From assembly GCA_000002435.2 (NCBI GenBank), contig CM018791.1: 64,000 nucleotides of DNA. One strand, written 5' to 3'. A program made the translations under genes and the position numbers. Source of the DNA: Giardia intestinalis (taxonomy: Eukaryota). Of this stretch, positions 1 through 35,037 are shown piece after piece (positions within the stretch are counted from its first letter, which is position 1; each line of letters opens with the position of its first letter). The notes below the pieces were generated by a model. That model saw nothing but the letters and a program-made list of their open reading frames with translations, was not told the origin of the DNA and did no database searches.

Positions 1-885
1 AGAGATTTCTATAAGGTTGTCTTGTACAATCCACACTCAAAGAATGAGATAGTATCAGCTTCACTTTATATCATATCCGTAGGTGTATCTGGCACCTAAG
101 GGCTTTGAAAGACTCTTTGATTGTCAAAAATAATCATCTGACAATCACTTGACTATTGGAGCATGTAATTAGTGTAAATAGTGTATATTTCATTTTCATG
201 ATTTGAAAGGTATTTAGAATACGTTTTAAAGCAGCAACTCTTTTAAATTAGAAAGATATTTTGCTGATTTTGGTTTGACGTATATCACGACAGTCACTCT
301 GCTGTGCGCACTGTGAATTGCAAACCCCACAGCCTCGAAGCGTTCTGGAGACCAAAGCAGAATTACTCTCGCATTGGTAATAGGGGACCTTGGAGTCCCT
401 ATAGTAGTAAGCTTTCCTTTCAGAAGCCATCCCTTATGTTAATTAACTGTAATCAGCTACACTATGCATGTTTCAATACTCAACTGAGTCTTCATGTATG
501 ATCAGGTCAATCTCTGCAGTTAGATAGGCATTTAATAGCACCTGGTGTACTCTCAAGCTTTACACAATCTAATAGTTAATACCACAACATTTGTCAAGCC
601 TGTGAAAACATTGAAGAACCCACTTTTCATAGACGCTTTTCTACAACCGTTAATGATTTGATCAATACTCACTATAACGTCCCTCTACTACTGTACACCT
701 GCTGTAATATAAATTTAGTATGACAAAAGCTACCGATGAATGTTGTATATGAGTAGACATCCTCACTCCTTCACCACATCTTTTTTATTGGCAGAGGCTC
801 GGTCCTTAAGTGAGAGTACTAGTCTATTTCATCCTTGTTATAGAGAAAGTGTAAGCATTATTGCAAACCCAGAGATTGTAATTGA

Positions 886-3800
886 CAGGCATATACTACC
901 TCCATGTCTGCACTCTGGATGCAACAACCACAGCGCAGCTGCATCTCCGATCATTCTGTGCACGCCTTCTGGCACGGGCAGGTGCGCCGGAGGGGGTGTA
1001 CTGCCCACCGCCGAGAAATGGATGAGCTCCTGGTCGGCCCGCCCCGCCTGGAACTTAGAGACCGCCATTCACGGCCGTGAAGAGAGTTCTCGCAAGTAAA
1101 TCTCTCGGGTTGATTCACACGGCGGGTAACCATCCGGTAGAATTCCGTATTGAATTAACTCGCTTAATTAAAAAGTTAGTATCCACGACAATATGGTGAG
1201 GCCCTGCCTGACCGTGGAAAATCAGTCAAAGGTGCTGCGCTGGCTTGCCACAGAGATCATAAACGCAATCCATCCAGAGGAGACGGTGGAGGACCTTCTT
1301 GCAAACCCGTGTCTGCTCCACTCGTACATGCTCAAAACATCCGTGGACTGGCATTGGATCTCTAACGAGGTTGGCGTGGACGAGAAGAAGGTTTCTCGTT
1401 GGTACTATGAAACGCACCTGCGCCACATCCTAACTATAAAGATGACTAACGAAGACCGTGGAGAGATTCGCAAGATTATCATCAATTGGATCCGCTGCCA
1501 GCAAGTTCCAGACGAGCGGCTTTACCAAGCAATTCATGAGAAGTTTGGAAAGAAGTACTCGCGTCAAGAGCTACGGATGACGTACTACAATATGCTTAAC
1601 AGTCGTTGCATACGGGCCGTCCTTACTGAGTGCAATATTCAGCGTCCGACAAGGCGGAGAAGGCCTCCTGAAACAGAGCGTGCAGGGCTATCTTCCTCGA
1701 CCGTCCTTCACATACCCGGGTATGCTTCCGGTCCTCAACCAGCCCCCTTAGACCATAGAAAGTTGTCCCAGTCAAGTACTCACAAGTATTCTCCAGAAGC
1801 AGCCTCTTTCTCTCAGATTGACGTCAAGGCAGAAAGTGGACTGAATAACGATATTCCAGATGAACCCGTTACCTTTAGTCCTCTTGCATTCCAGAGCATT
1901 GCCCAACAGCAACCGTACATTAAGCTACTCAATCTACAGTCAGTCCCGCTCTCCCTCGATATTAACGGCCAATTAGCATGCATCCCCCTAATCATAGTTG
2001 AGCCAGGAGCCAACATCTGGTCCATTACTCCCAATGAGGAGCCAGTGGGAGGCGCTGGACAGTAGCGTTCTTTGGTATTGCTCTTCTAACTCATGATAAA
2101 GGATTTGCCGCCTTTTATCTTGCAGAAGACTAGACTTATCTGTACCCCACACTTGATTGCAGATGCAGCAGGACCATGTGCAGGCCATGAAGGTCACGCA
2201 TTGACAAAGCAAACTGGAATTATTCACAGAGGTGGTTTTTGGCAAACTTGTAATCTAGTGGCACGTCATCTTTGGGCTAAGTTGCCTAACTTCTAATCGT
2301 ATATCTACGGCTTCCCTATTTACGCGGTTCTTTGCAGGAGCTAGACCTACTGAAGCATACTTAGCACATAATTCCGCAGATGAGGATACGCGATAATATT
2401 ATCAGCATCCCAATCTCATTCTTGTCAATAACGAATGTATCGATCCACAGATGCTAGTTTCTATCAGCCGAATTAGACTCGCTTAGCAGCCCGTAGAGAT
2501 GATGTAGCTCACCACCGAAGTACTTCCACATCTGCTTTTTTCCGTTTTAGACATAAAGTTGGAACTCATTATTTACCCCGTCAATGATTTTCTGCGTTCA
2601 CTGATGGGTGTATATTATTCTATATTGTCAGTTATCTAGGGACCTCTTTCATAGGAGCGCCACATCAACCCCCTTTATGTTCCTCTTACATTTTATTATG
2701 TGCTTTACATCTTCTTGTCTATCAATATTCACACCCCCATGGATATGCCAGATACATATCTGTATCATATGCTACTGTGATCATAGGTTTGTTGTAAATA
2801 AGGGTGTGATCGGTACCACCACAGAACTCGTTAAACCCTGTCTGCCTTGAGAGTACGCTAATGGGACTACATGCTCAATCTGAGCAGATGTCTGTGGGCT
2901 TGTGTGCTAGCTGGAATAAGATAGGTGACTACTCTGTATGATCATCCTGTTATCATGATTAGGTAGCCGCGAAAGATTAGACGTCATTGCAGGAGCAGAC
3001 AAGGCACTAGGACAGCGATTTGCTTTCCAAGGATGACGTGGATTAATAGGTTAGTAGGCAGTTCTTGGATGCAGGAGTATTAGTGGATTTGTAGACTCGC
3101 GTAGTTATGCATACAGGTCATGGTAGGGGCTCTGGTAATTCTCTGATGGTGGCCCACTTTGGCAAGAGCTCAGCTGGGAAAGGCAAGGCGCTGGACGAGG
3201 ACGCGGAGAAAGTTCGGCACCCCGTGTTCCCACGACGTCTCCGATCGCAGTACTGGCGGGGCCTGACGGCGCTTCTCTTCTTAATTCGGAACGAGTTAAG
3301 GAGTTTCCGCCGTAGGATGGCCGAACTGGCGGCTGAGGGAGCTGTGCGATGTGTCAGAGATTGTTAGAGATTCATACTGTATATTGTGCAATGGCTAACG
3401 TGTATGGGTGTCCCACCGAAGACCCGGTGAAGGATGGCACCGGAGATGAGACAGGATGACCCCTGGTGGAGGAGACCACGGTGCGGGCTTGCCTGCAGAT
3501 GCCGTGGCTAAAATCTCAGCCCGTCCAGGAATCTAACAGAGATTATGCAGCCGGACACTGGGACCTACCGGAGAGCCGCATCGCCCCTGCACGAGCCAGC
3601 AAGCACTGCCTTCGACCCGACCACAGTTGGGAACGCTCATGTCCGTGGATGCCGTCGGTCAGGTCCCTGAAGACCACCCTGCTCACAGCCCCAGGGATCC
3701 CTCTGCAGACTCTGATTTCTATATCCCTGGGGTAGATGTTTGCGGATAGCGGCACAGGGCTCAGCAGAACCGCCAGAAGATCCGCAGCACACTGTCATTA

Positions 3801-4727
3801 ACTATAAACGTCTTGCGGTATTCATTCCATGGCTAAGCCACCAATAATGGCACTGGAACTGGAGTAAGACACTTCTAGGGTGCGACTACAGGACCGTGGA
3901 GGAGCTTCCTTCCCACGAAGGAGACCCTGCAGCTAGGGCGTGGTCCATCAACGCTTAGAACTGCACACCTTGGTAGAAGCAGAGCCAAGCCCACACTTAG
4001 AAATCGATGGCTGCCCTCTTGGACCCCGCACATGGTAATAGCTATAGAAAAGAGCTTGGGCAAGGAGATCACGCGGACCAGGTGTACCCGGACTGAGAAG
4101 CGTCTACTTCATCAAGTAACGGTAACCGGTCTATGCACACAGACCATGTTTGGCGGCAAGCTCCCCTGTAGCTCATGTATACACTGCGAACCGCTGCCTA
4201 GAGGCTTGCGTTGGAGATGCTGCAAGACACTAATGGTTGAAAGGTGTGACTAGCCGTTCTTCTAGATATCGTCTCTTTGGATGCGCCGGGTACCTAAGGC
4301 GATAGTCCAGCGCTGCACGCCTTGACTGCCACGGGCCTTGTGCATAGCCGACCAGGTGCCCGACACACGCCGCTTGGGAGTGCCCAGACCACACGGTGCC
4401 GTAATCGGGCTGCTAAGGTGCGAGAGATGGTGCACAGAGGCGCATATCAGAGCCAAGAGTCTGTGTGTCGCCTGCCTCTGGGTGGAATAGTTGTACAATA
4501 GTAGGGGGTGCTCATTGCCATACAGAAGCGGGCACGGCAAAACATGGAGGCGCGGTCCTACCGCAGGATTCGACGGATGCTCGGAGACAGGTGGTCCAAC
4601 GGTTTTATGGAATGACGGCGCAACGGCCATGGAGTGGGCAGGTGCAATAGGCGATGCGTTTACTACCTAAGTACACAGCTAAGTCTACGCCTTCCCCCTG
4701 CACAGGAACCACCAGCAGAGGAAGCCG
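886..4727. repeat. Left arm of a large inverted repeat, about 3.84 kb. It is the reverse complement of about 7763..11603. The inner end carries a VSP 3'-end remnant, and the arm contains one copy of a 290-aa Myb-like gene.
   Basis: Every six-frame ORF in 951..4650 reappears with identical translation on the opposite strand in 7839..11538, for example 1193..2065(+) = 10424..11296(-) and 4262..4630(-) = 7859..8227(+). Coordinate sums are constant at about 12489. The outer boundary was read at 886/11603, where the sequences diverge abruptly. One a/g mismatch was seen at 3925 versus 8564, giving V/I in the 65-aa ORFs. Confidence 0.85.
1193..2065 (+). CDS. Hypothetical protein with two tandem Myb/SANT-like repeats in the N-terminal 150 aa and a low-complexity C-terminal tail. 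This is the left-arm copy.
   Basis: A 290-aa ORF with an ATG start. The motifs ...DWHWISNEVGVDEKKVSRWYYETHL... and ...FGKKYSRQELRMTYYNMLN... resemble Myb repeats (W-x18-W and GKxxxQCRERWHNHLN-like with W replaced by Y). It is identical to 10424..11296(-) and about 40% identical over about 145 aa to the 12040..12849(-) paralog. Confidence 0.6.
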   Translation: MVRPCLTVENQSKVLRWLATEIINAIHPEETVEDLLANPCLLHSYMLKTSVDWHWISNEVGVDEKKVSRWYYETHLRHILTIKMTNEDRGEIRKIIINWIRCQQVPDERLYQAIHEKFGKKYSRQELRMTYYNMLNSRCIRAVLTECNIQRPTRRRRPPETERAGLSSSTVLHIPGYASGPQPAPLDHRKLSQSSTHKYSPEAASFSQIDVKAESGLNNDIPDEPVTFSPLAFQSIAQQQPYIKLLNLQSVPLSLDINGQLACIPLIIVEPGANIWSITPNEEPVGGAGQ

Positions 4728-4756
4728 ACGAGCACAGTGACAGCAATGTACAGGAA
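4685..4756 (-). pseudogene. VSP C-terminal remnant: a transmembrane-like segment plus the CRGKA tail and stop. It is oriented away from the intact VSP gene.
   Basis: The minus-strand ORF 4685..4906 ends ...FLYIAVTVLVGFLCWWFLCRGKA-stop. Only the last 23 codons or so are VSP-like, and the upstream part of the ORF has no VSP features such as CxxC. The last 14 codons, the stop and the AGTAAAC signal (reverse-complemented at 4658..4664) are identical to the intact VSP. The preceding LVG codons differ only at synonymous positions (ctc gtc ggc versus ctt gtg ggc). Confidence 0.7.
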
Positions 4757-4987
4757 TGCATCCCGAACAATCATTCCACAAGAGAGGTGCGGTCTGAGTC
4801 TAGCCTCAACTGGTCCTATTTCTATGGAAGTCAGGAGGAACTGCACTGTCAGCTGGCCTCCGGTGGGCGTACTCCTATCTCGTCCTTCTCCAGTCCAACT
4901 GATCAAGGAGAGTAAGAGCGGCTGTCTCTTACTGCTCGCGGTAACACATCAGCCTGACGGAAGAGCAGTGGCATACGAACCCGGCTA

Positions 4988-7804
4988 ATGTTGGTAGGAT
5001 TTCTCTTAGTTTTTGTGGTAACACAGGCCAACTGCGCACAAGAGCTGACCCAGGCAGGCTGCAAGACGTGTGTCGGGGCAGACGCCGCCCAGACGTGTAC
5101 GGAGTGCACAACTTCTGGACACAAGGTACAGCTCGATAAAAGAAGCTGCGGCCCCACCTGCCCGGCGCACTCCACGGCCAGCTCGAACGTCTGCGAGTGC
5201 GACCAGGGATACACGCCCAACGCCGGGAAGACCGCGTGCGAGCCCAATCCCAGCGCGGGATGCGCACAAGAGCTGACCCAGGCAGGCTGCAAGACGTGTG
5301 TCGGGGCAGACGCCGCCCAGACGTGTACGGAGTGCACAACTTCTGGACACAAGGTACAGCTCGATAAAAGAAGCTGCGGCCCCACCTGCCCGGCGCACTC
5401 CACGGCCAGCTCGAACGTCTGCGAGTGCGACCAGGGATACACGCCCAACGCCGGGAAGACCGCGTGCGAGCCCAATCCCAGCGCGGGATGCGCACAAGAG
5501 CTGACCCAGGCAGGCTGCAAGACGTGTGTCGGGGCAGACGCCGCCCAGACGTGTACGGAGTGCACAACTTCTGGACACAAGGTACAGCTCGATAAAAGAA
5601 GCTGCGGCCCCACCTGCCCGGCGCACTCCACGGCCAGCTCGAACGTCTGCGAGTGCGACCAGGGATACACGCCCAACGCCGGGAAGACCGCGTGCGAGCC
5701 CAATCCCAGCGCGGGATGCGCACAAGAGCTGACCCAGGCAGGCTGCAAGACGTGTGTCGGGGCAGACGCCGCCCAGACGTGTACGGAGTGCACAACTTCT
5801 GGACACAAGGTACAGCTCGATAAAAGAAGCTGCGGCCCCACCTGCCCGGCGCACTCCACGGCCAGCTCGAACGTCTGCGAGTGCGACCAGGGATACACGC
5901 CCAACGCCGGGAAGACCGCGTGCGAGCCCAATCCCAGCGCGGGATGCGCACAAGAGCTGACCCAGGCAGGCTGCAAGACGTGTGTCGGGGCAGACGCCGC
6001 CCAGACGTGTACGGAGTGCACAACTTCTGGACACAAGGTACAGCTCGATAAAAGAAGCTGCGGCCCCACCTGCCCGGCGCACTCCACGGCCAGCTCGAAC
6101 GTCTGCGAGTGCGACCAGGGATACACGCCCAACGCCGGGAAGACCGCGTGCGAGCCCAATCCCAGCGCGGGATGCGCACAAGAGCTGACCCAGGCAGGCT
6201 GCAAGACGTGTGTCGGGGCAGACGCCGCCCAGACGTGTACGGAGTGCACAACTTCTGGACACAAGGTACAGCTCGATAAAAGAAGCTGCGGCCCCACCTG
6301 CCCGGCGCACTCCACGGCCAGCTCGAACGTCTGCGAGTGCGACCAGGGATACACGCCCAACGCCGGGAAGACCGCGTGCGAGCCCAATCCCAGCGCGGGA
6401 TGCGCACAAGAGCTGACCCAGGCAGGCTGCAAGACGTGTGTCGGGGCAGACGCCGCCCAGACGTGTACGGAGTGCACAACTTCTGGACACAAGGTACAGC
6501 TCGATAAAAGAAGCTGCGGCCCCACCTGCCCGGCGCACTCCACGGCCAGCTCGAACGTCTGCGAGTGCGACCAGGGATACACGCCCAACGCCGGGAAGAC
6601 CGCGTGCGAGCCCAATCCCAGCGCGGGATGCGCACAAGAGCTGACCCAGGCAGGCTGCAAGACGTGTGTCGGGGCAGACGCCGCCCAGACGTGTACGGAG
6701 TGCACAACTTCTGGACACAAGGTACAGCTCGATAAAAGAAGCTGCGGCCCCACCTGCCCGGCGCACTCCACGGCCAGCTCGAACGTCTGCGAGTGCGACC
6801 AGGGATACACGCCCAACGCCGGGAAGACCGCGTGCGAGGTGGCCTCTAACACGCAGTGTAATACTCCCAACTGCAAGATCTGTGATAACCCCAAAACAGA
6901 CAATGAAATCTGCACTGAATGTAATGACGGCGACTACCTCACTCCAACAAAGCAGTGTACGCAAAGCTGCGGAGCAATAGGAAGCTACTACAACGGAGAC
7001 AAAGTGTGCGAGCCCTGTAATCCTAGCTGTGCTGCGTGCACCACAAAGGGACCAGCGAAGTGCACGCTGTGTCCTCCCGGGAAGAGGCTCCAGTACACAG
7101 ATGAGAACAGTCCATCAAGCGGTACTTGCGTAGATGAGTGCAAGCCCCAGAGTGGAGCTAGCGGATGCGAGACCTGCGGAGCCACCATCGGAGGGACAAA
7201 GTATTGCTCGAAGTGCAGCACATCCACGGAGGTCCCCGTCAACGGAGTCTGTACAGCAGACAATGCCCGCGCGCCCGTATGCTCGAAAAAGGACAATCAG
7301 GGAGGGTGCACTACGTGTGCCAGTGGGTACTTCCGCCAGGACAACGGCTGCTATAAGACTGACAGACAGCCAGGCAAACAGATATGTACACTAGCTGATA
7401 GCAATGGTGGATGTCAGGCGTGTGCCAATGGTCTTCCTCCTAGTTCTTCTGACGTATGCCCCTCGTGTCATTTCACCTGCAAGACATGCTCGACCGCAGA
7501 CACTGCAAATACTTGTACAACGTGTGCAACTGGGTACTATATGGTCGGATCAGCAGCTGGACCATGCACTTCGTGTGACAGCAACAGTGGAAGTGTCAAG
7601 GGAGTTGCTGGCTGCATGAGCTGCGCTCCTCCATCTAATAATCAAGGCTCCGTCCTTTGCTACCTCATAAAGGATACCGGTAGCACCAACAGGAGCGGCC
7701 TCTCCACGGGGGCCATCGTGGGGATCTTCGTCGCAGTCATCGTTGTTGTGGGGGGCCTTGTGGGCTTCCTCTGCTGGTGGTTCCTGTGCAGGGGGAAGGC
7801 GTAG
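4988..7804 (+). CDS. vsp: Variant-specific surface protein (VSP), 938 aa. It has an N-terminal signal peptide, eight identical 76-aa Cys-rich repeats, a CxxC-rich body, a transmembrane helix and the invariant CRGKA cytoplasmic tail.
   Basis: ATG at 4988. The N-terminus MLVGFLLVFVVTQANC is hydrophobic. The protein is about 12% Cys with many CxxC motifs. The C-terminus ...GAIVGIFVAVIVVVGGLVGFLCWWFLCRGKA is the hallmark of the Giardia VSP family. AGTAAAC follows 21 nt after the TAG stop. Confidence 0.95.
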   Translation: MLVGFLLVFVVTQANCAQELTQAGCKTCVGADAAQTCTECTTSGHKVQLDKRSCGPTCPAHSTASSNVCECDQGYTPNAGKTACEPNPSAGCAQELTQAGCKTCVGADAAQTCTECTTSGHKVQLDKRSCGPTCPAHSTASSNVCECDQGYTPNAGKTACEPNPSAGCAQELTQAGCKTCVGADAAQTCTECTTSGHKVQLDKRSCGPTCPAHSTASSNVCECDQGYTPNAGKTACEPNPSAGCAQELTQAGCKTCVGADAAQTCTECTTSGHKVQLDKRSCGPTCPAHSTASSNVCECDQGYTPNAGKTACEPNPSAGCAQELTQAGCKTCVGADAAQTCTECTTSGHKVQLDKRSCGPTCPAHSTASSNVCECDQGYTPNAGKTACEPNPSAGCAQELTQAGCKTCVGADAAQTCTECTTSGHKVQLDKRSCGPTCPAHSTASSNVCECDQGYTPNAGKTACEPNPSAGCAQELTQAGCKTCVGADAAQTCTECTTSGHKVQLDKRSCGPTCPAHSTASSNVCECDQGYTPNAGKTACEPNPSAGCAQELTQAGCKTCVGADAAQTCTECTTSGHKVQLDKRSCGPTCPAHSTASSNVCECDQGYTPNAGKTACEVASNTQCNTPNCKICDNPKTDNEICTECNDGDYLTPTKQCTQSCGAIGSYYNGDKVCEPCNPSCAACTTKGPAKCTLCPPGKRLQYTDENSPSSGTCVDECKPQSGASGCETCGATIGGTKYCSKCSTSTEVPVNGVCTADNARAPVCSKKDNQGGCTTCASGYFRQDNGCYKTDRQPGKQICTLADSNGGCQACANGLPPSSSDVCPSCHFTCKTCSTADTANTCTTCATGYYMVGSAAGPCTSCDSNSGSVKGVAGCMSCAPPSNNQGSVLCYLIKDTGSTNRSGLSTGAIVGIFVAVIVVVGGLVGFLCWWFLCRGKA
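5033..6838 (+). repeat. In-frame tandem array of 7.9 copies of a 228-bp unit inside the VSP gene. All full copies are identical at the nucleotide level.
   Basis: Alternate-frame ORFs recur at exactly 228-bp spacing (5070, 5298 ... 6666). The sequence lines at 5041-5100 and 6181-6240 (5 x 228 bp apart) are letter-for-letter identical. The unit encodes AGCAQELTQAGCKTCVGADAAQTCTECTTSGHKVQLDKRSCGPTCPAHSTASSNVCECDQGYTPNAGKTACEPNPS, with 10 Cys. The last copy diverges at ...KTACEVASNTQ. Confidence 0.95.
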
Positions 7805-7824
7805 ACTTAGCTGTGTACTTAGGT

Positions 7825-7831
7825 AGTAAAC
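7825..7831 (+). promoter_or_regulatory. Giardia polyadenylation signal AGTAAAC (consensus AGTPuAAPy) downstream of the VSP stop.
   Basis: agtaaac lies 21 nt 3' of the TAG at 7802..7804. A mirrored copy (gtttact) sits at 4658..4664 downstream of the remnant on the minus strand. Confidence 0.7.
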
Positions 7832-10423
7832 GCATCGCCTATTGCACCTGCCCACTCCATGGCCGTTGCGCCGTCATTCCATAAAACCGTTGGACCACCT
7901 GTCTCCGAGCATCCGTCGAATCCTGCGGTAGGACCGCGCCTCCATGTTTTGCCGTGCCCGCTTCTGTATGGCAATGAGCACCCCCTACTATTGTACAACT
8001 ATTCCACCCAGAGGCAGGCGACACACAGACTCTTGGCTCTGATATGCGCCTCTGTGCACCATCTCTCGCACCTTAGCAGCCCGATTACGGCACCGTGTGG
8101 TCTGGGCACTCCCAAGCGGCGTGTGTCGGGCACCTGGTCGGCTATGCACAAGGCCCGTGGCAGTCAAGGCGTGCAGCGCTGGACTATCGCCTTAGGTACC
8201 CGGCGCATCCAAAGAGACGATATCTAGAAGAACGGCTAGTCACACCTTTCAACCATTAGTGTCTTGCAGCATCTCCAACGCAAGCCTCTAGGCAGCGGTT
8301 CGCAGTGTATACATGAGCTACAGGGGAGCTTGCCGCCAAACATGGTCTGTGTGCATAGACCGGTTACCGTTACTTGATGAAGTAGACGCTTCTCAGTCCG
8401 GGTACACCTGGTCCGCGTGATCTCCTTGCCCAAGCTCTTTTCTATAGCTATTACCATGTGCGGGGTCCAAGAGGGCAGCCATCGATTTCTAAGTGTGGGC
8501 TTGGCTCTGCTTCTACCAAGGTGTGCAGTTCTAAGCGTTGATGGACCACGCCCTAGCTGCAGGATCTCCTTCGTGGGAAGGAAGCTCCTCCACGGTCCTG
8601 TAGTCGCACCCTAGAAGTGTCTTACTCCAGTTCCAGTGCCATTATTGGTGGCTTAGCCATGGAATGAATACCGCAAGACGTTTATAGTTAATGACAGTGT
8701 GCTGCGGATCTTCTGGCGGTTCTGCTGAGCCCTGTGCCGCTATCCGCAAACATCTACCCCAGGGATATAGAAATCAGAGTCTGCAGAGGGATCCCTGGGG
8801 CTGTGAGCAGGGTGGTCTTCAGGGACCTGACCGACGGCATCCACGGACATGAGCGTTCCCAACTGTGGTCGGGTCGAAGGCAGTGCTTGCTGGCTCGTGC
8901 AGGGGCGATGCGGCTCTCCGGTAGGTCCCAGTGTCCGGCTGCATAATCTCTGTTAGATTCCTGGACGGGCTGAGATTTTAGCCACGGCATCTGCAGGCAA
9001 GCCCGCACCGTGGTCTCCTCCACCAGGGGTCATCCTGTCTCATCTCCGGTGCCATCCTTCACCGGGTCTTCGGTGGGACACCCATACACGTTAGCCATTG
9101 CACAATATACAGTATGAATCTCTAACAATCTCTGACACATCGCACAGCTCCCTCAGCCGCCAGTTCGGCCATCCTACGGCGGAAACTCCTTAACTCGTTC
9201 CGAATTAAGAAGAGAAGCGCCGTCAGGCCCCGCCAGTACTGCGATCGGAGACGTCGTGGGAACACGGGGTGCCGAACTTTCTCCGCGTCCTCGTCCAGCG
9301 CCTTGCCTTTCCCAGCTGAGCTCTTGCCAAAGTGGGCCACCATCAGAGAATTACCAGAGCCCCTACCATGACCTGTATGCATAACTACGCGAGTCTACAA
9401 ATCCACTAATACTCCTGCATCCAAGAACTGCCTACTAACCTATTAATCCACGTCATCCTTGGAAAGCAAATCGCTGTCCTAGTGCCTTGTCTGCTCCTGC
9501 AATGACGTCTAATCTTTCGCGGCTACCTAATCATGATAACAGGATGATCATACAGAGTAGTCACCTATCTTATTCCAGCTAGCACACAAGCCCACAGACA
9601 TCTGCTCAGATTGAGCATGTAGTCCCATTAGCGTACTCTCAAGGCAGACAGGGTTTAACGAGTTCTGTGGTGGTACCGATCACACCCTTATTTACAACAA
9701 ACCTATGATCACAGTAGCATATGATACAGATATGTATCTGGCATATCCATGGGGGTGTGAATATTGATAGACAAGAAGATGTAAAGCACATAATAAAATG
9801 TAAGAGGAACATAAAGGGGGTTGATGTGGCGCTCCTATGAAAGAGGTCCCTAGATAACTGACAATATAGAATAATATACACCCATCAGTGAACGCAGAAA
9901 ATCATTGACGGGGTAAATAATGAGTTCCAACTTTATGTCTAAAACGGAAAAAAGCAGATGTGGAAGTACTTCGGTGGTGAGCTACATCATCTCTACGGGC
10001 TGCTAAGCGAGTCTAATTCGGCTGATAGAAACTAGCATCTGTGGATCGATACATTCGTTATTGACAAGAATGAGATTGGGATGCTGATAATATTATCGCG
10101 TATCCTCATCTGCGGAATTATGTGCTAAGTATGCTTCAGTAGGTCTAGCTCCTGCAAAGAACCGCGTAAATAGGGAAGCCGTAGATATACGATTAGAAGT
10201 TAGGCAACTTAGCCCAAAGATGACGTGCCACTAGATTACAAGTTTGCCAAAAACCACCTCTGTGAATAATTCCAGTTTGCTTTGTCAATGCGTGACCTTC
10301 ATGGCCTGCACATGGTCCTGCTGCATCTGCAATCAAGTGTGGGGTACAGATAAGTCTAGTCTTCTGCAAGATAAAAGGCGGCAAATCCTTTATCATGAGT
10401 TAGAAGAGCAATACCAAAGAACG

Positions 10424-11296
10424 CTACTGTCCAGCGCCTCCCACTGGCTCCTCATTGGGAGTAATGGACCAGATGTTGGCTCCTGGCTCAACTATGATTA
10501 GGGGGATGCATGCTAATTGGCCGTTAATATCGAGGGAGAGCGGGACTGACTGTAGATTGAGTAGCTTAATGTACGGTTGCTGTTGGGCAATGCTCTGGAA
10601 TGCAAGAGGACTAAAGGTAACGGGTTCATCTGGAATATCGTTATTCAGTCCACTTTCTGCCTTGACGTCAATCTGAGAGAAAGAGGCTGCTTCTGGAGAA
10701 TACTTGTGAGTACTTGACTGGGACAACTTTCTATGGTCTAAGGGGGCTGGTTGAGGACCGGAAGCATACCCGGGTATGTGAAGGACGGTCGAGGAAGATA
10801 GCCCTGCACGCTCTGTTTCAGGAGGCCTTCTCCGCCTTGTCGGACGCTGAATATTGCACTCAGTAAGGACGGCCCGTATGCAACGACTGTTAAGCATATT
10901 GTAGTACGTCATCCGTAGCTCTTGACGCGAGTACTTCTTTCCAAACTTCTCATGAATTGCTTGGTAAAGCCGCTCGTCTGGAACTTGCTGGCAGCGGATC
11001 CAATTGATGATAATCTTGCGAATCTCTCCACGGTCTTCGTTAGTCATCTTTATAGTTAGGATGTGGCGCAGGTGCGTTTCATAGTACCAACGAGAAACCT
11101 TCTTCTCGTCCACGCCAACCTCGTTAGAGATCCAATGCCAGTCCACGGATGTTTTGAGCATGTACGAGTGGAGCAGACACGGGTTTGCAAGAAGGTCCTC
11201 CACCGTCTCCTCTGGATGGATTGCGTTTATGATCTCTGTGGCAAGCCAGCGCAGCACCTTTGACTGATTTTCCACGGTCAGGCAGGGCCTCACCAT
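10424..11296 (-). CDS. Right-arm copy of the 290-aa Myb/SANT-like protein, identical to 1193..2065.
   Basis: Identical 290-aa translation in the ORF track. It lies within the inverted-repeat arm. Confidence 0.6.
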   Translation of the reverse strand: MVRPCLTVENQSKVLRWLATEIINAIHPEETVEDLLANPCLLHSYMLKTSVDWHWISNEVGVDEKKVSRWYYETHLRHILTIKMTNEDRGEIRKIIINWIRCQQVPDERLYQAIHEKFGKKYSRQELRMTYYNMLNSRCIRAVLTECNIQRPTRRRRPPETERAGLSSSTVLHIPGYASGPQPAPLDHRKLSQSSTHKYSPEAASFSQIDVKAESGLNNDIPDEPVTFSPLAFQSIAQQQPYIKLLNLQSVPLSLDINGQLACIPLIIVEPGANIWSITPNEEPVGGAGQ

Positions 11297-12039
11297 ATTG
11301 TCGTGGATACTAACTTTTTAATTAAGCGAGTTAATTCAATACGGAATTCTACCGGATGGTTACCCGCCGTGTGAATCAACCCGAGAGATTTACTTGCGAG
11401 AACTCTCTTCACGGCCGTGAATGGCGGTCTCTAAGTTCCAGGCGGGGCGGGCCGACCAGGAGCTCATCCATTTCTCGGCGGTGGGCAGTACACCCCCTCC
11501 GGCGCACCTGCCCGTGCCAGAAGGCGTGCACAGAATGATCGGAGATGCAGCTGCGCTGTGGTTGTTGCATCCAGAGTGCAGACATGGAGGTAGTATATGC
11601 CTGCCAAGACAGCACACGACTTCCCTACAGCTCCTTGGCGTGTCGGCGCGTGAAGACAGAGGGCCAGCCAGGGTGAATGTCGTGGCCGGCCAGCTGCACA
11701 TCAGCTTTAGCTCACGGCCCAGAGAGCATTCAGTCGCCTGTTACCGGACGGGCCTGTCTGGTAGATCGTTGGCCCAGACCGCGGTGTTCGAGTCGTCTGG
11801 GCACATGGGAGAGCCCTGCCTTCGTCTGCTGTGTGTGGTCTCTTCAACGATGCGCAGAATGTGGGTTGCGCGACATCCAGACCGTCGCAGCCTGCGTCTG
11901 GTGGGCCCTGCGCTGTGCCGTGGTTGAGCATGCTACACGCTCTAGACATGACGGTCTCGTCACTGACCAGGCTCCGGCCATTAGCTGCTCCTACCGACCA
12001 CTCTTCGCCAACCACCAAGCAAGCCGGGGTCTCCAGTCC

Positions 12040-12849
12040 TCAACCCTTACTGGGGCTCGCATCAGCGCACCCAGGCACGCCTCCGTAGCCCGCAGGGGGG
12101 AAGCATGGCACGCATGCGAATGCAACGGGCGACCCGAGGAGACCCTGGCCCGTCTGGAGCGGGAGGACGCCAGGCCCAGGAACGACCCCGGGCGGGAGGG
12201 CGAGGACGAGGCACCCCGGCGCGTGCGGGGGCAGAAGCGCAGAGACCGCGCCCGGGGCCACAAAGACCGGCCCCCCGACGGGCGGCACCAGCGGAGGCGC
12301 GGCGCAACCAAGAACGCAGGGGGGCGGGGGAGAGGCCGCCACAGGAGATGCCCCCTCCTCCTGCTTGGCCGCCCTCGGGCCGTATGTGCGGCGCGGCAGC
12401 ACCACCCCGTGCTCCTCCAGGGCGGCGCGGACGTCCTGGGTGCGGAGCGCGTTGTTGTACGTCATCCGCAGCTCCTGGCGCGGATACTTCGCCCCGAAGC
12501 GCTCGTGGACCCTGCGGTAGAAGTCCGGGCCCAGGATGCTCCGGTCCCTGACCCCGGCGATGATCATCGCCTTGATGGCCCTGCGGTCCTCGCCAGTCAT
12601 CTTCACGTTGAGGATGCTCCGCGAGTGCGTCTCGCGGTACCAGTGGTAGATCCTGCTCCGGTCCTCGGACAGGGCGCGGGCGATCTTCTTCCAGTCGATG
12701 GCCGTCCGGAGCACGTGCCGGTGGAGGAGCAGCGGCCGCCGCGCGAGGCTCTCGGCCGTCTCCCCCAGCCGCCGGGCAGCGACGACCTGCTTCGCGAGCT
12801 CGAGCAGAACGGAGGCGCGCGTCTCCGCCGTCATTGCCCCAGAGCCCAT
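12040..12849 (-). CDS. Diverged, GC-rich paralog (269 aa) of the 290-aa Myb/SANT-like protein found in the inverted-repeat arms.
   Basis: ATG confirmed (cat at 12847..12849 on the plus strand). The stretch ...LLHRHVLRTAIDWKKIARALSEDRSRIYHWYRETHSRSILNVKMTGEDRRAIKAMIIAGV...FYRRVHERFGAKYPRQELRMTYNNALR... aligns collinearly with LLHSYMLKTSVDWHWISNEVGVDEKKVSRWYYETHLRHILTIKMTNEDRGEIRKIIINWI...LYQAIHEKFGKKYSRQELRMTYYNMLN of the 290-aa protein. The C-terminal tail is Pro/Ala/Gly-rich and unrelated. Confidence 0.6.
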   Translation of the reverse strand: MGSGAMTAETRASVLLELAKQVVAARRLGETAESLARRPLLLHRHVLRTAIDWKKIARALSEDRSRIYHWYRETHSRSILNVKMTGEDRRAIKAMIIAGVRDRSILGPDFYRRVHERFGAKYPRQELRMTYNNALRTQDVRAALEEHGVVLPRRTYGPRAAKQEEGASPVAASPPPPCVLGCAAPPLVPPVGGPVFVAPGAVSALLPPHAPGCLVLALPPGVVPGPGVLPLQTGQGLLGSPVAFACVPCFPPAGYGGVPGCADASPSKG

Positions 12850-14260
12850 CCGATAGAAGCAGCGATAAAACTAAAAACAGACCAACGAATAATGTGAAAT
12901 TAAATATGTACAGGCCTTGCACAAAAGTTTTAGCGGGTGTTTGTTGCCTGCCTGCCCCGGTCCGTCGGGCGAGCAGGGCGCCCTCACCCGGGCCATCGCC
13001 GCAGTACGAGCTGGCTTAGGCCGCCACACAGAACAGACCGCTTTGCACACGGCGGCGTCGGGGTTGATGTATTGATCGGAGTTTTTTGGTATTGCCGGGA
13101 ACCCCCGCCCTCGGCCACCAGGGAGAGCCGCACTCTGCGCAGCCCCGGTTTGTCTGCATATGCCCAGAGCTCTGCGGAGGCGGGCAGGCTGGGACCGTCC
13201 TCCTCGTTCGGGGCATCGCCGACGACGAGCTGTTGCCTGCGGCCCGCGGGGTCTTCCGCTCTGAGAGGGGCCACCGAGTGTCGTGGGCCGCAGCGCTCTG
13301 CAAGGCCTGCACACGACCAGAGGCTGCCAAGTTTTTTGAGCAACTGGCTCTGGCGCGGATTCTGCGGACACCTGCTGCCGGCCCAGTCTACAGGGGCGCC
13401 CGCGTGTCTACTGTGGCCTGGCGTGCGTTTCTGCGCGTCCTCCTGCGGCGGCTCCCCTCGTGGCGCAGGAAGCCCTGCCTGTCCTCTCCCACCGGGTTCT
13501 CCCGACGTGCTCTCCACCGCACCCAGCCGAGGTTCCAGCGGACAAAGGAGCGGCATGACCCAATCAGTCGCCAGATTACATTGTGCTCTGGAGCTGCGAA
13601 TCTTGCTGGCATCTCATGCGACAGTGGCTCTGGGTGTGCCCGCTCAGCAGCAGCTACCTCATCCACAGAGTGCTGATGCAGATATTATGCGCTACGTATC
13701 AGTGACCACAAGGGCACCGATAGACAGGGTCTCAGCCTCAGTGCACAGCCAAGGTTGCCAAGCATAGCGAGGCTTACATACTGAGCATGGGTCCGTGCCC
13801 CGCGTGGTCTTCTTAAGAACTAGTGCATGAGTGCTCGTGAGACGACGCCCCATATGAGGCGGGCTATCCGTTGTACGCGAAGCACAGCACAGCAGAAGTG
13901 GGTGATGCAGGGACCAGAGGGGGTGCTTCAGCACATCAGTCGTCGGCCCCTCTGCCTTCTGTCGCGCCTGATGGACTCTCCTCTATTATCGCAACTCGGT
14001 CGCGGTTGTCTGAGGAGAGGACTAGGTACTCAGCAGACAATGGAATCGCGTGGCCTGGACGCGATTTCGTGATGGCCAACATGGGTTATCAGGCTGGCTG
14101 TGGTCTGGATATGTGGTACAGCTTCCTTCACTCAAGCAGGTACGTAGCATTTTCACTGGTGTATATTGCACAGCCCCTTGGCACCTGTACCCGAGGCCAA
14201 CACCGCACCAGCTTTCTGATCGCTAGGACTGCCCGGGTGCGGACAAGGTGCTTCGTTCAC

Positions 14261-14998
14261 TTAGAAGTATATCTCGGCACGACGCCTGCGCTGTCTTATT
14301 GCATTGAGGTGATGGCGGCCGCCGTATTGTGTCTGTAGAAGTAGACGCCTGCGCGCATTGCTATCGTCTATCTTCTGCAGCAGCGATGCGTCGAAGCTCC
14401 CGGTAATGTTCTCTGGCTTGGACACCATCTTGGCGACGCTCTTGACATCCTCTTCTGTTAGGTAGTTGAACCTCCGAGGCTTCTTGTCTGGGCTGTCAGA
14501 CTCAGCCACCGGCTTCTGGGTCTTCTCCACCCCATTGATGAAGCCGCTGCCACGCAAAAGAGTCACGGGATAGACAAGGCCGCGCAGTATCTCAAAGACC
14601 GTCCCGGCGCCCAGCGTGTTTATGGCTGTCTGGAGCAGGCGGAGGCAGCGCAGGAGCATCACGTTATTTTCGTAGAAGGAGCAGCCGCCGCGAACCCTAT
14701 CGACATTCTCAGTGGACCCGGTCTGCAGGATATTGATCAGCTCTATGACGACGGCCTCCAGGATGCGGCCCTTGATGTTGCTGATGCCCTCAATGCACTC
14801 CTCATAAAGGCCCGAAAGGACCCCAGGCATCGCCACAAAGCGGCGCATCACCTGCTCCAGGATGGTCTGGATGTACTTGCAGGTCTGGGGGTAGCGCTGC
14901 GACGTCCTGCCGGGGTCAGCAAGAGATCGGTGCGTGGCGCTTTTATTAAGACCGGAGATGGCAGACGTAGAGCGGGTGTCTTTGAAATAACAAATCAC
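14261..14998 (-). CDS. Hypothetical alpha-helical protein, 245 aa as drawn. The start is uncertain.
   Basis: Long ORF in a gene-dense context. The codon at 14996..14998 is GTG rather than ATG. The first in-frame ATG is M51, at about 14848. The 69-aa ORF 14946..15155(-) in another frame has a proper ATG and abuts this ORF. That pattern could mean a frameshift or that the true start is internal. Confidence 0.4.
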   Translation of the reverse strand: MICYFKDTRSTSAISGLNKSATHRSLADPGRTSQRYPQTCKYIQTILEQVMRRFVAMPGVLSGLYEECIEGISNIKGRILEAVVIELINILQTGSTENVDRVRGGCSFYENNVMLLRCLRLLQTAINTLGAGTVFEILRGLVYPVTLLRGSGFINGVEKTQKPVAESDSPDKKPRRFNYLTEEDVKSVAKMVSKPENITGSFDASLLQKIDDSNARRRLLLQTQYGGRHHLNAIRQRRRRAEIYF

Positions 14999-15710
14999 GT
15001 TGTAATTCTCCAGGATGATGGGCTACGTGCAGACAGGAGTCTATAGTAATTGTGCTAGGTCTATGTATTATGTACTTCACACTGATTGATAACAAAGATA
15101 ACGAGGAGAATTTTGATTGAAACCAGAAACTGGCTGCAATGATAGCAGTGCCCATTTTTCATCGGTAAAGGTCTAAAAGTCTTTGCTTCACCTCTATTTT
15201 ACTTAAGCGGATAATAAAAATGATATTCAACAATTATTTTGAAAATAAAGTTGCTAGTGTAGAAAAGATACATGCGTCTCTGGTTAAGACTGAAAATGTG
15301 TATGCGTGAGGTTGTTGTGCTAAGAGGAACTTTTTTGCGTTCTAAATGCTGGGACAAGTAGCTACCGACACAATATTTTTATACTCGTTAAGCATAGTAT
15401 TGCAAGTGCCAGCGACTCATCTGTTATAATAGTGCTATTTGAACAAGAATGCTAGCAAGATAATGCACACACTGCGGTATCTAAATAGTGTCCTAGTCTC
15501 TACACAGGTATGCCTGACGTTAAAAGTATGAAGATTGGAGGCGTATCTACGACAGTAAGAGTAAATGACATGGTAGGGCTCAACTATACAATGAGAAAGA
15601 TCATCTACGGTGTTGAGCCATGAGGCCAAACTCAGAACACGGAAATAAGTCCGTGTAGTAATTTGAATAGTTTCAAAATTCAAAACTCAGTTCTTGATAA
15701 TCTCCAGTCA

Positions 15711-18700
15711 ATGAGCTCTAAAACAGAGATCCCAATAATTACCGACGAGGGGGACTTTAGCGCTGAGTATGAAACGTTTTGTCAGGCAATGAACGGAGTT
15801 GCCGATGGAACATTCATCTGTGTGAGCGTTTTTGGACCACAGTCTTCCGGAAAGTCAACCCTTCTCAATGACCTTTTTGGGACTAGCTTCAAGACAATGG
15901 ACTTATCAGCGGGGCGAACTCAAACCACGAAAGGAATCATGGCACGTGCAGTAGACTTCCAAACGAAAGTCGCCCCTCGGGTTCTTATTCTAGATTGTGA
16001 AGGCTCAGATAGCCGCGAACGTAACCAGCAAGAGGCACAGAACATTGAAAGACACATAGGATGCTTTGCAGCTGCAGTGAGTGATCTGCTGATAATAAAT
16101 GTGTGGAACCACGATATAGGGCGCCACTCCGCTGCAAATTATAACATACTCTCTACCATCTTTGACATCTACTTTAGGTCCTTGCTTAAGGCACGTAGAA
16201 AATCAGGCAATCATAGGCCCTTAATTTTACTAATTGCAATCCGAGACGCCGAAGAGGACGGGGCAGAACTGACGCAAAGGACATTCGAGTCTGATGTTCA
16301 CCATATCTATGAGCAATCCGTTCCTAAGCAGTACCATGGCTCTTTCAGAGACTACTTCTGCCTGCGATTTTGGTTTATTCCTCACCGAAGATATATGAAA
16401 TCGTTGTACGATGAAAAGATTACGCAGCTAAAAACAGATATCAAGGAAATCTTCGATTCCTTACTCGGTGCTGAGACAGCAACCACTCTAATACCCCTTA
16501 CGGATTCGTCTATATACTATAACAACATCTGGGACATCGTTCGGACTGACAAAGACTTGGATATCCCAAGTCAGAGGGAGATAGTATCTAACATAAGATG
16601 CGAAGAATTCTATTTGGAGGCTATAGAGCAGTTTTCCTCGCAAGTCGGCAAAGTATTTGCAGATGTCACGGCAGCAATTCAGGTTTCCTTGGGTCAGCAA
16701 AGCTCAACCTTTTTGGAGCAGAGCCCGGACGCCGTTAAAGATTATCCTATAACAAAACTACATAACGCTTGCAATTCTTTCAAGCTAACAAAGGTTCTGA
16801 TGGATCTTTCACAAGAATGTGTCGCCTTGTATCGCAGAAAGACACGGCACTACATTCCCAAGGTGGTTACTCAATGGGCTACTAAGCTCAATGACGATGT
16901 TTTGGCCGGATTGAAGAAAGTGGCTCACAGCTTTGCAAAGGGCATCCGAGAGTCTACCTGCCAGGCACTAGGTGCTGTCACGGCTCCGTTTCGGGTACAG
17001 ATTACACAGTGGCTCGAGCGACACGAGTATAGCGATGACTACGCGTCCAATACTAATACGGTAGATATACTTGTACCAGATCTTATAAGCGACTTGACAT
17101 TCCCACAGAAGCGACTCACCGATCTTATGGGTTTGCTTGGTGCTGCGACAAGGGTGTTTCATAAGTGCATTTCTGTCAATTGGGCCCATGAGTATTCAGG
17201 TCTTTGTGATACCGGAATCCTCGTTAACCTACCACCAAATGATGTAGGGCCTAATTCTAATGTACGCATCGGTGACAACGCTATAGAAACGAATGCAGGC
17301 TCATCTGTCAGGTTGTCTGTCGGTTATGAGGCATCAGAGCCCATGGTGGACGCCCATATCGATGATTCTGGAGCCTTTTTCTCAGATATTAGGCAAACTG
17401 GAGTGTATTCGCCTCATCTTTATGCATTTCTGGAGAGTCTTTCGCTATCTACCTACGGGAAGGCGTTGTCGCTGCAGAAGTTGCCTGCCGCTCCTCCTGA
17501 TGTTGCCAACGCTTATGATGCTGTTTGCCTACTCCATACCATTATACTACTGTGGTACTGTGAAACAATGATGCCACTGAGTCTTATATATGACATCACA
17601 CCAGAGATAGACCACGTTATCCCAGAGTCCAATGCTCTCTTCTGCGAGACAATGGGCAGCATTTTGGCCGCCGTTGCGGAGGCTGTTTCCAGCCAGACAC
17701 GTACCATTACGGCGTCGATGACTCAAGCGACTGCACGCCTAATGGATGACAAACTCTACGTGACACTCGGATCTCTCCGAGGTGTTATTTATGAGTCAGC
17801 AAGAAAAACCCTTGAGCGCTCTTTCTTTTCGCTGCTCTCATCCGCCTTTGTCGCCCCCGATCACCAAGGACTGCTCTACTTGCAAACACGCCTCTCCAGC
17901 CCCTCAATTTACTTTGATCTTCACTTTGATTCCAGCTCCAGATCCAGCCCTACAGACTCTATTCTACCAGATACACAGAATCCTGTATATAAGCAGTATA
18001 CAGATATATATTTATTTTCGACGTTACCAGCTCTTCTCTCGCCGCTTCCACGAGCGTATAATACAGTAGGAACTCGTCTCTCGTCAGGGTCTAGCTCAAT
18101 CCAGTCGCTACTTCCTCGCTACAGAGCTGTCCCCATTGTAGCTGCTCTTGATATGTCTGCCTTTTACATTCCACAAGCAGCTTTGTCCTCGTTCATGGAT
18201 AGAGTTGACGCAGAGATAATAGAGTTAATTAATAAAAGTCTCGGGGAATTCTTCTCTAAGAGTTTTCCTCTAGTCCTGCAAAACAAGATACATACTAAGC
18301 TAGTATATGACGATCAAGGAGCACAGCGTTCTTACATTTCGGAGAATTCTATATTGACAGAGTTTCTTTCAGAGAAGAAAGGTCTCATATCTATGGCGCA
18401 GTTGTTTGAGGGAGGGACTCTTATAACAGAGAACCTGCATTCTGTGACAATAAAACCTACTTCGCAAGAAAAGATTGATGCTATGCTTCGGTGTGCTGAA
18501 GCAGAGTGGGATAAGACGTATCAAGAAGCCTTGGAAATATATCGTACCAACAAGCACAAGGATAAATATAAGTGGGTATGGTTAGGCCTGTGCGTTTTCC
18601 TTATGCTTACTCGCAAGTGGGTATATGCAGTTTTGCTAAGCAAGTACTGTCTCTGCATCACAATATTACTTCTTTCTGTTGGTCTTTTCGTTTATCAGCG

Positions 18701-34890: not shown

Positions 34891-34953
34891 TTCTTTTTCC
34901 GCGTCTCCTGCACAAAGCGGTTTCGCGCATCTTGTGGCTCGAGCGGTCCGTGC

Positions 34954-35035: not shown

Positions 35036-35037
35036 GT

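Follow-up and report, generated by a model that had tools for sequence, protein, structure and literature searches.

Duplicated VSP genes of Giardia are known to occur as identical inverted pairs, arranged head-to-head or tail-to-tail (Adam et al., 2010, PMC2996952; Xu et al., 2020, PMC7000408; Rodriguez-Walker et al., 2022, preprint). The locus described here, which lies in a window of 64 kb (the whole stretch of DNA that was analysed) from the genome of Giardia intestinalis WB, is a variant of these VSP-linked inverted duplications. As in the published pairs, DNA around a VSP is duplicated in inverted orientation, and the two arms are ~100% identical up to abrupt points of divergence. A unique spacer of similar size separates the arms (2190-3847 nt in the published pairs and 2513-3846 nt in most of them, vs. 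3024 nt here and 2.6 kb in isolate P15), adjoining hypothetical genes are duplicated as well, and pseudogene remnants are found between or beside the members. Unlike in the pairs, the intact VSP has no complete and identical partner facing the other way. Instead, a single VSP occupies the spacer, only its last 13-15 codons and 3′ UTR are duplicated, and the arms are 3.85 kb of non-VSP sequence with a 5S rRNA gene and the gene GL50803_00116968 (hereafter 116968). In addition, the duplicated VSPs in the preprint of Rodriguez-Walker et al. (2022) are all without tandem repeats, whereas the VSP in this core has 7.9 copies. Conservation across sub-assemblages together with concerted evolution, which the comparisons below show for this locus, does not appear among the properties given for the VSP pairs in the cited works.

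A repeat search of the window returned a single inverted pair, 882-4732 and 7757-11607, with 3851 nt per arm and 3024 nt between the arms; no other inverted repeats of at least 60 nt were found in the window. The features of the locus are as follows.

882..4732, no strand: left arm, 3851 nt, differing at 4 positions from the right arm read in reverse complement
1193..2065, + strand: left copy of GL50803_00116968, 290 aa
3209..3328, - strand: 5S rRNA gene of the left arm (Rfam RF00001, 88.3 bits, full length)
4658..4664, - strand: left-arm copy of AGTAAAC, downstream of the stub
4685..4786, - strand: VSP pseudogene stub, a decayed transmembrane region followed by GFLCWWFLCRGKA and a stop; last 48 nt in the left arm
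4733..7756, no strand: unique core, 3024 nt, with the part of the stub outside the arm and the upstream region and body of the intact VSP
4986..4992, + strand: VSP start motif TAATGTT, the putative initiator of Adam et al. (2010, PMC2996952)
4988..7804, + strand: intact VSP, 938 aa (Pfam VSP, E = 8e-94); last 13-15 codons and stop in the right arm
5033..6838, + strand: VSP tandem repeats, 7.9 perfect copies of a 228-bp (76-aa) unit
7757..11607, no strand: right arm, with derived bases at 11604 and 8564
7825..7831, + strand: AGTAAAC, the poly(A) signal of the VSP, 21 nt beyond its stop and 68 nt from the inner edge of the right arm
9161..9280, + strand: 5S rRNA gene of the right arm
10424..11296, - strand: right copy of GL50803_00116968

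Base-by-base comparison of the arms identified four mismatches (885/11604, 3925/8564, 4727/7762, and 4730/7759), of which only 3925/8564 is not at an edge. The initial annotation had described near-perfect arms of ~3.84 kb with one mismatch, and indeed 886-4726 differs from its partner at 3925 alone. It had also correctly placed an arm edge inside the VSP ORF, where 7763-7804 codes for GFLCWWFLCRGKA and the stop, and a 290-aa ORF in the left arm. The 5S rRNA gene of each arm, the decayed VSP at the left inner junction, and the occurrence of the palindrome beyond WB were absent from it. When polarity was assigned against all AII-type sequences, the derived bases at 885/11604 and 3925/8564 were both found in the right arm. 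Arm identity drops abruptly, within ~5 nt at 882-886 and within ~7 nt at 4726-4733, and the palindrome lies between distinct, syntenic flanks. In the 2.6 kb of non-coding sequence in each arm, Pfam gave no match and revealed no reverse-transcriptase remnant. Likewise, no Pfam family was assigned to the arm ORFs or to the flanking ORFs at 11677-12897 and 12937-13767, and none of these ORFs is recombinase-like.

The only part of the VSP present in both arms is 7757-7804 (15 codons and the stop). The VSP pseudogene stub at the left junction accounts for the position of the arm edge within the conserved VSP 3′ end. The stub comprises 34 codons, is head-to-head with the intact VSP, matches the Pfam VSP profile at positions 364-397 of 397 (5.7e-8), and is conserved at 67 of 68 positions between WB and DH. 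Neither exact look-ups nor homology searches with the whole protein and its 391-aa tail recovered a WB database entry for the 938-aa VSP, and its best homologues were found in an AII-type contig (85%) and in DH (81%). Length arithmetic excluded vsp3/GL50803_137740 as the core VSP; vsp173/GL50803_98058 and 'Girep-4' fit that arithmetic and are candidates for its identity. If a VSP of DH (P0084) were the orthologue, DH would be without a left arm. This candidate was rejected, as its first 550 nt and 3′ flank are unrelated, it contains no more than 120 nt of the repeat unit, and its gene neighbourhood is a different one.

Both arm genes are intact. 116968 has been described as a nuclear protein restricted to diplomonads (PMC13322205), and its two copies are present in the protein records (KAE8302796.1/KAE8302798.1 and XP_001704500.1/XP_001706333.1). 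The ORF is intact and preceded by 311 nt of upstream sequence in both arms. A predicted model of the protein contains a confident helical N-terminal domain with no fold match in the PDB (best E = 0.48), and a JGI metagenome scan gave no match to it. The 5S rRNA gene is 100% conserved between WB and DH. The WB genome has ten 5S genes (PMC7000408, Table 1), two of which are supplied by this palindrome along with the duplicate nuclear-protein gene.

Absence of the arms from sister isolates had been proposed as the mark of a recent neutral duplication. On the contrary, AII-type isolates were found to have arms with the same outer edge, and a related palindrome is present in assemblage E. The junction of arm and left flank occurs in three AII-type contigs and that of arm and right flank in two, one of them from DH, with the edge at 882 as in WB. 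Three independent assemblies yield contigs that consist of the arm alone, with 882 as one limit and 4672 or 4723 as the other, and one assembly contains a core-only contig with inverted arm ends. The inner edge varies; in one AII-type sample, whose stub has FICRGKA where the VSP has FLCRGKA, perfect identity stops ~8 codons closer to the stop than in WB. At the same site in P15, a pig isolate of assemblage E, there is a smaller palindrome in which 116968 is followed by arms of 1.2 kb; the right arm may be longer, since the right-flank contig ends ~775 bp before the expected arm edge. Each P15 arm has a 5S gene, the arms are 96-100% identical, and the core of 2572 nt holds the whole VSP. P15 arms that ended within the VSP 5′ end were also considered, but the annotated start is over-extended and the true start, Met119 at CAATGTT, is in the core. 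In GS (assemblage B), the order is 116968(+), 5S(-), VSP(-), VSP(-). These gene orders suggest that the unit 116968(+)/5S rRNA(-)/VSP(-) is old and common to Giardia assemblages A, B, and E. Since identity between the P15 arms is as low as 96% and their edges do not coincide with those of WB, the palindromes of E and A themselves could be independent events.

Within WB, the arms differ at 4 of 3851 positions (~0.1%). The right arm of DH and the ERR15315897 left arm differ at none of 2356 positions, a figure that concerns collapsed contigs and two different samples rather than the two separate arms of one genome. Between lineages, the arms diverge by 1.2-3.6%, which is typical of the regional flanks (93.6-98.7% identity). 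As judged from these alignments, the arms are shown to undergo concerted evolution, because they differ by 0.1% or less within WB vs. 1.2-3.6% between lineages. They appear to be kept identical by arm-to-arm gene conversion, the probable mechanism, and gene conversion around Giardia VSPs has already been reported (PMC12669663). We consider it probable that the locus is a segmental palindrome on the old 116968/5S/VSP unit, with arms homogenised by gene conversion and no role in RNA silencing needed. It may have started from two head-to-head VSP genes with inverted homologous 3′ ends, one of which has since been reduced to the 34-codon stub. Repair or replication would then have copied the 3.85 kb downstream of one VSP to the far side of the other; judging from the position of the junction, this probably happened by break-induced copying or by a template switch at the inverted VSP tails. 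If so, the inner arm edge would be the point at which the two VSP tails cease to match. Crossover between the arms would invert the 3-kb core, and such a flip should be silent, because the same VSP is rebuilt and its surroundings are unchanged for 3.85 kb on each side.

A very young duplication confined to WB would also give near-perfect arms, as would an assembly artefact, whether through collapse, a chimeric read, or PacBio fold-back. This explanation is already contradicted, and we regard it as extremely unlikely. Two copies of 116968 occur in the independent WB assemblies of 2007 (Sanger) and 2020 (PacBio), the 3-kb spacer is unique and holds an intact gene between distinct, syntenic flanks, AII-type assemblies of unrelated samples have identical arm edges and junctions to both flanks, and P15 has a related palindrome. 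Moreover, the WB PacBio reads (N50 12.7 kb, 200x coverage; no misassembly seen and no structural variation reported) have an N50 exceeding the 10.7-kb structure. Assembly collapse, a concern of the initial annotation, is effectively excluded, because the arm gene is two-copy in both WB assemblies and contigs of independent short-read assemblies join the arms to both flanks. The supplement of a nanopore structural-variant paper holds no entry for the gene numbers of the locus. A different explanation is that the arrangement is selected, either for doubled dosage of 5S rRNA and 116968 or because outward-facing Pol III genes bracketing a VSP would insulate its chromatin. The retention of a full-length 5S gene and an intact 116968 ORF in both arms is in keeping with this, as are the small number of 5S genes in WB and the P15 5S genes, which lie on each side of the central VSP, ~1.3 kb from either end of its ORF. 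Nevertheless, gene conversion without selection predicts the conservation of both arms just as well, and the 7.8 kb available for GS contain a 5S gene on just one side. Pol III genes are known to act as insulators in yeast and mammals but are not known to do so in Giardia, and we consider a selected arrangement unlikely.

Two further explanations assign a function to the inverted geometry itself. In bacterial phase variation, switches of the Hin and FimB/E type rely on short repeats, a dedicated site-specific recombinase, and an inversion point that splits promoter from gene. Here, too, inverted repeats surround a surface-antigen segment and core orientation appears to vary among isolates, so that a core flip could be imagined to toggle the VSP on and off. 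The VSP direction in WB is opposite to that in P15, GS and, by implication, the DH contig: the VSP tail is at the right arm in WB and beside the left unit in P15 and GS, while the DH contig runs from right flank through arm and stub to VSP head, along a path across a 3.85-kb two-copy repeat that may be an arbitrary choice of the assembler. These opposite orientations are compatible with an arm-mediated flip, and the flip-flop isomer of the initial annotation is plausible to that extent. A switch is nonetheless barely credible. The inversion boundary does not split promoter from gene, as 255 nt of upstream sequence, the start motif, and all but the last 13-15 codons share the core, and either arm supplies the same tail and poly(A) signal, so the isomers are identical for 3.85 kb on each side. 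As the core carries the start region with almost all of the ORF, and the arms do not differ from one another, a core flip would be no switch. The short repeats, dedicated recombinase, and split promoter of the bacterial systems are all absent, with no recombinase-like ORF in or beside the arms, and the WB PacBio data are without reported structural variation. Hairpin-RNA loci that yield endo-siRNAs in animals, plants, and trypanosomes each form one transcription unit, have a short loop, and give rise to abundant small RNAs. The palindrome shares with them a genomic inverted repeat that could form dsRNA if transcribed as one unit; its loop, however, is a 3-kb coding gene with its own poly(A) signal, and its arms hold Pol III and protein genes. 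Two-arm or convergent transcripts might in principle give long dsRNA that includes the pan-VSP 3′ end, on which Dicer and Argonaute would act to limit VSPs. In favor of such a source, the arms are perfectly complementary and take in the last 13-15 VSP codons and the 3′ UTR, and the + strand has no canonical AGTRAAY between 1095 and 7825, which makes read-through from the left 116968 conceivable. According to PMC2817412, moreover, Giardia VSPs and VSP-like 222-228-nt arrays ('Gireps') are transcribed on both strands and small RNAs map there, although the published small-RNA counts that were found concern the 228-nt repeat arrays and not the palindrome arms. We nevertheless find a built-in dsRNA source highly improbable. 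The canonical AGTAAAC at 7825 is inside the right arm and speaks against a signal-free two-arm transcript; a normal 3′ end would take in just ~70-90 nt of that arm. The ~3.8-kb hairpin RNA of the initial annotation is unsupported; it would require a transcript of >10 kb that runs on past the poly(A) signal of the VSP and reads through both 5S genes, the left one head-on. Nor is the VSP tail a conserved anchor, because in P15 the tail and its poly(A) signal belong to the core rather than to the arms. The inner edge also moves between A lineages. Published models invoke RdRP-made antisense RNA (PMC2817412) and snoRNA-derived miRNAs (PMC3937270) without a genomic hairpin, and with ~340 VSP and pseudo-VSP tails genome-wide (PMC7000408) the stub is no special source of antisense. 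In a more speculative form, low-level transcription of the palindrome, by 116968 read-through or pairing of arm transcripts, would yield dsRNA of the pan-VSP 3′ end as a hard-wired Dicer/Argonaute trigger, with core flips changing the strand that is read; this we consider very improbable.

A segmental palindrome homogenised by gene conversion would have several uses and consequences. It could serve as a clean natural reporter of mitotic recombination in Giardia, where the existence of sex is under debate, with the ratio of core orientations in long reads reporting crossover and arm identity reporting gene conversion. The VSP cassette can change fast between sub-assemblages (71-97% identity by segment) while the arms around it change slowly and stay identical, which bears on the turnover of the VSP repertoire. 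In practice, any read, small RNA, or variant from 882-4732 or 7757-11607 has two mapping positions, and core orientation is beyond phasing by short-read assemblies. The palindromes of the human Y chromosome and the plastid inverted repeat, which exists as flip-flop isomers, likewise have arms homogenised by gene conversion. The Giardia locus resembles them in its long, near-identical arms, its unique spacer, and an arm divergence far below that between lineages; varying spacer orientation is expected of such structures and is possibly seen here, between isolates. It differs from them in its much smaller scale and in its host, a tetraploid, binucleate protist.

The arms of the palindrome (882-4732 and 7757-11607) measure 3851 nt each and enclose a spacer of 3024 nt. 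A repeat search found no other inverted repeat of at least 60 nt in the 64-kb window, and together with a base-by-base comparison it confirmed the palindrome at the position claimed by the initial annotation. The base-by-base comparison located four arm mismatches, at 885, 3925, 4727, and 4730; inside 886-4726 only 3925/8564 differs, in agreement with the single mismatch originally counted. At 885 and 3925, the derived base sits in the right arm, with all sequences of type AII (another sub-assemblage of assemblage A; WB is of type AI) as reference. Exact protein look-ups matched the neighbouring proteins in the window to KAE83028xx entries of the 2020 assembly and so assigned the window to Giardia intestinalis WB. 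From outer to inner end, each arm contains the following:

1193-2065 (+) and 10424-11296 (-): 116968 gene (GL50803_00116968), 290 aa, with 311 nt of upstream sequence included in the arm
Each arm, between 116968 and the 5S gene: ORF-free stretch of 1.1 kb
3209-3328 (-) and 9161-9280 (+): full-length 5S rRNA gene (88 bits)
Each arm, between the 5S gene and the VSP 3' UTR: stretch of 1.36 kb without recognisable ORFs
Inner end of each arm: 3' UTR of the variant surface antigen gene (VSP) with AGTAAAC, stop codon, and last 13-15 VSP codons

The 5S gene, which the initial annotation overlooked, points away from the core in both arms. 5S genes are dispersed repeats, ten of them in WB (PMC7000408 Table 1), and two of these ten thus lie inside the palindrome. 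Linkage of 5S and VSP was also found in P15, an assemblage E pig isolate (both sides), and in GS of assemblage B (one side). In GS-B contig AHHH01000245.1 (2743-3262), four tandem 110-nt units, each including ~67 nt of 5S rRNA, stand beside a complete 5S gene; this region appears liable to rearrangement. The 116968 protein is reported to be nuclear and confined to diplomonads (PMC13322205). Its model has a confident all-helical domain at residues 1-153 (pLDDT 83-95) and a disordered remainder, with no significant match to PDB folds; its paralogues DHA2_153000 and GLP15_4189 share 44-47% identity. Elsewhere in the window are the Giardia U1 spliceosomal RNA at 53791-53911 (-) (Rfam 149 bits), a tRNA-Ser(GCU) at 34953-35036 (+), and the ORF of a TPR/dynein docking-complex protein at 42214-43695 (-). 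The last has 493 aa in the window and in numerous short-read assemblies vs. 473 aa as annotated in the WB 2020 proteome, which looks like a choice of start codon.

The core VSP is intact (4988-7804, 938 aa; Pfam E = 8e-94); its start motif is TAATGTT, and it contains a 228-bp repeat in 7.9 perfect copies. It was not found in the protein collections searched, where the best matches (85 and 81%) both came from AII-type sources, and its gene number is therefore uncertain; vsp173/GL50803_98058 is a candidate that fits by length and cysteine arithmetic (543 aa = 2 repeats + 391-aa tail). The 2020 annotation has exactly one protein accession between the two 116968 copies. The repeat array (5033-6838) spans 1806 nt, and its copies are 100% identical to each other. 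In size alone it is like the "Girep-4" non-coding RNA locus, which comprised 8 x 228 (1810 nt) at an old scaffold's start, with small-RNA matches to both strands (Chen et al., 2009, PMC2817412). Gireps may perhaps be just VSP repeat arrays truncated at assembly breaks. At the left junction, the minus strand reads ...SCGMIVRDAFLYIAVTVLVGFLCWWFLCRGKA followed by a stop codon, which matches the VSP profile at its final 34 positions (Pfam, E = 5.7e-8). This match indicates that the left arm ends in a decayed VSP pseudogene, more than a 14-codon copy; this stub (4685-4786, -) has a transmembrane part unlike that of the intact VSP and lies head-to-head with it, 255 nt apart.

Several observations argue against an assembly artefact. 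Two 116968 protein accessions exist in both the 2007 Sanger and the 2020 PacBio assembly of WB. PacBio coverage was 200x with a read N50 of 12.7 kb, and split alignments gave the authors no sign of misassembly. WB-type short-read contigs match both arms at 100% and break off inside the 5S gene. Nine such contigs share nearly the same start, 1001 in eight and 1025 in one. Position 1001 (mirror 11488) lies 119 nt inside the arm edge, and AII-type contigs read straight through it. None of the repeated 21-mers in the window accounts for these starts; a possible cause is polymorphism among the tetraploid's eight arm copies or a short repeat in another part of the genome. The comparison with other isolates that had been proposed revealed every element of the WB structure among AII-type sequences. 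In three contigs (L011, L013, and L014), the left flank (MFS transporter, ankyrin protein, kinase) continues into the arm, and in DH contig AHGT01000059 the right flank (RHD3-type GTPase) does so. Left- and right-flank contigs converge to identity exactly at the WB edge, TTGACAGG, 882. Arm-only contigs from three independent metagenome assemblies (L015-L017) run from 882 to 4672 or 4723, the signature expected of a collapsed two-copy repeat. A further contig (L020), from the same sample as one of these, is 1661 nt long and consists of the core bounded on either side by ~90 nt of inverted arm. K-mer coverage in that sample (arm contig 27.95 vs. core contig 18.86) fits two arm copies when the core contig's collapsed tandem repeat is taken into account, but it is not decisive.

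Between lineages the arms diverge by 1.2-3.6%, in line with their flanks (98.2-98.7% identity in coding and 93.6-97.2% in non-coding DNA). Within lineages, divergence is 0.1% between the two WB arms, and across 2356 nt no difference separates the DH right arm from its left counterpart in a different sample, ERR15315897. Divergence between lineages combined with identity within them indicates that the palindrome is older than the AI/AII split and that its arms evolve in concert, as judged by sequence comparison in which the AII arms are known from collapsed contigs or different samples. WB vs. DH identity is uneven along the palindrome:

116968 coding sequence: 99.4%
5S gene: 100%
3329-4684, between 5S gene and VSP tail: 93.1%, with 24 gap columns
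Stub: 98.5%
VSP upstream region: 86%
Signal-peptide region of the VSP: 71%

Segment 3329-4684 is far more diverged than the remainder of the arm (98.3-99.4%).

In P15, the orthologous 116968 has the same left flank, and an inverted repeat of ~1.2 kb comes after it. Its arms (12271-13505 and 16078-17315 in ACVC01000096.1) are 96-100% identical, each begins with the 5S gene, and the enclosed core is 2572 nt. The annotated 855-aa VSP (13682-16249) begins in a GC-rich, non-VSP extension; the true start is Met119 (MLFAVLYLALGTLAAPC) at 15895, preceded by CAATGTT, and the corrected gene model places the whole VSP inside the core, leaving 182 nt before it and 177 nt after it. On its right-hand side, the P15 palindrome is bordered by DNA that is not syntenic with the WB window. 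In GS-B the order is 116968(+), 5S(-), VSP(-), VSP(-), with no inverted repeat within the 7.8 kb covered. These two gene orders mark the 116968/5S/VSP-tail unit as ancestral. A VSP between inverted 5S-bearing arms occurs in both A and E; since the arm edges differ, this may reflect either common descent or recurrence.

The inner edge also varies. Perfect arm identity in WB extends through GFLCWWFLCRGKA, while in the AII-type core contig it ends ~8 codons closer to the stop (stub FICRGKA vs. VSP FLCRGKA), and in P15 the VSP tail is wholly outside the arms. These shifts argue against an edge designed as an anchor on the family-wide VSP 3' end. A paralogous DH VSP has no more in common with the palindrome locus than the tail and ~28 nt of 3' UTR. 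On this sequence evidence, the inner edge is apparently the point where two inverted, different VSP genes become too dissimilar for copying to go on. A head-to-head VSP pair could have given rise to the duplication, through break-induced copying or template switching from one of its inverted 3' ends to the other, and arm identity would be kept by arm-to-arm gene conversion. Gene-conversion tracts in Giardia are reported to have a median of ~3.3 kb and to be enriched at VSPs (PMC12669663). A crossover between the arms would flip the core, as the initial annotation proposed, and such a flip is plausible. The VSP tail is at the right arm in WB and next to the left unit in P15 and GS, and the DH contig, in the order right flank, arm, stub, VSP head, has the flipped arrangement. 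The WB orientation is reliable because of its long reads, and that of P15 thanks to the 4% difference between its arms, but the DH contig crosses a two-copy repeat, so its path may be the assembler's arbitrary choice. A flip would be functionally silent, since the start motif, upstream region, and ORF move together and either arm completes the VSP with an identical tail, stop codon, and poly(A) signal.

It had also been suggested that a plus-strand RNA through both arms folds into a 3.8-kb stem and serves as a source of dsRNA. From its stop to 7825, the left 116968 copy has no canonical AGTRAAY on its own strand (2066-7824), and Giardia transcribes VSPs and VSP-like 222-228-nt repeat arrays from both strands (PMC2817412). 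However, such a stem requires RNA from before 882 to beyond 11607, whereas transcripts would ordinarily end ~70-90 nt into the right arm because of the canonical VSP poly(A) signal at 7825, and the RNA must pass both 5S genes, the left one head-on. Moreover, the key feature of the hypothesis, a VSP tail inside the arms, is absent in P15 and changes position among assemblage A sequences, and the published silencing models work without a genomic hairpin (PMC2817412; PMC3937270). The hairpin is thus unsupported, and we consider it very improbable.

Giardia WB has 14-20 identical, inverted VSP pairs, most with spacers of 2.2-3.8 kb, with duplicated hypothetical genes nearby and pseudogenes or retroelement relics between (PMC2996952; PMC7000408). 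Our locus resembles these in inverted geometry, spacer size, and abrupt edges, but it lacks their defining feature, two identical VSP ORFs; its VSP is in the spacer, and non-VSP DNA that includes a 5S gene makes up its arms. To the initial annotation, our analysis adds the 5S genes, a stub accounting for the junction, conservation in AI and AII with concerted evolution, the related palindrome in assemblage E, and the difference in core orientation. In the features tested, the locus is unlike hairpin-RNA loci and invertible promoter switches; in its behaviour, it is like large palindromes homogenised by gene conversion.
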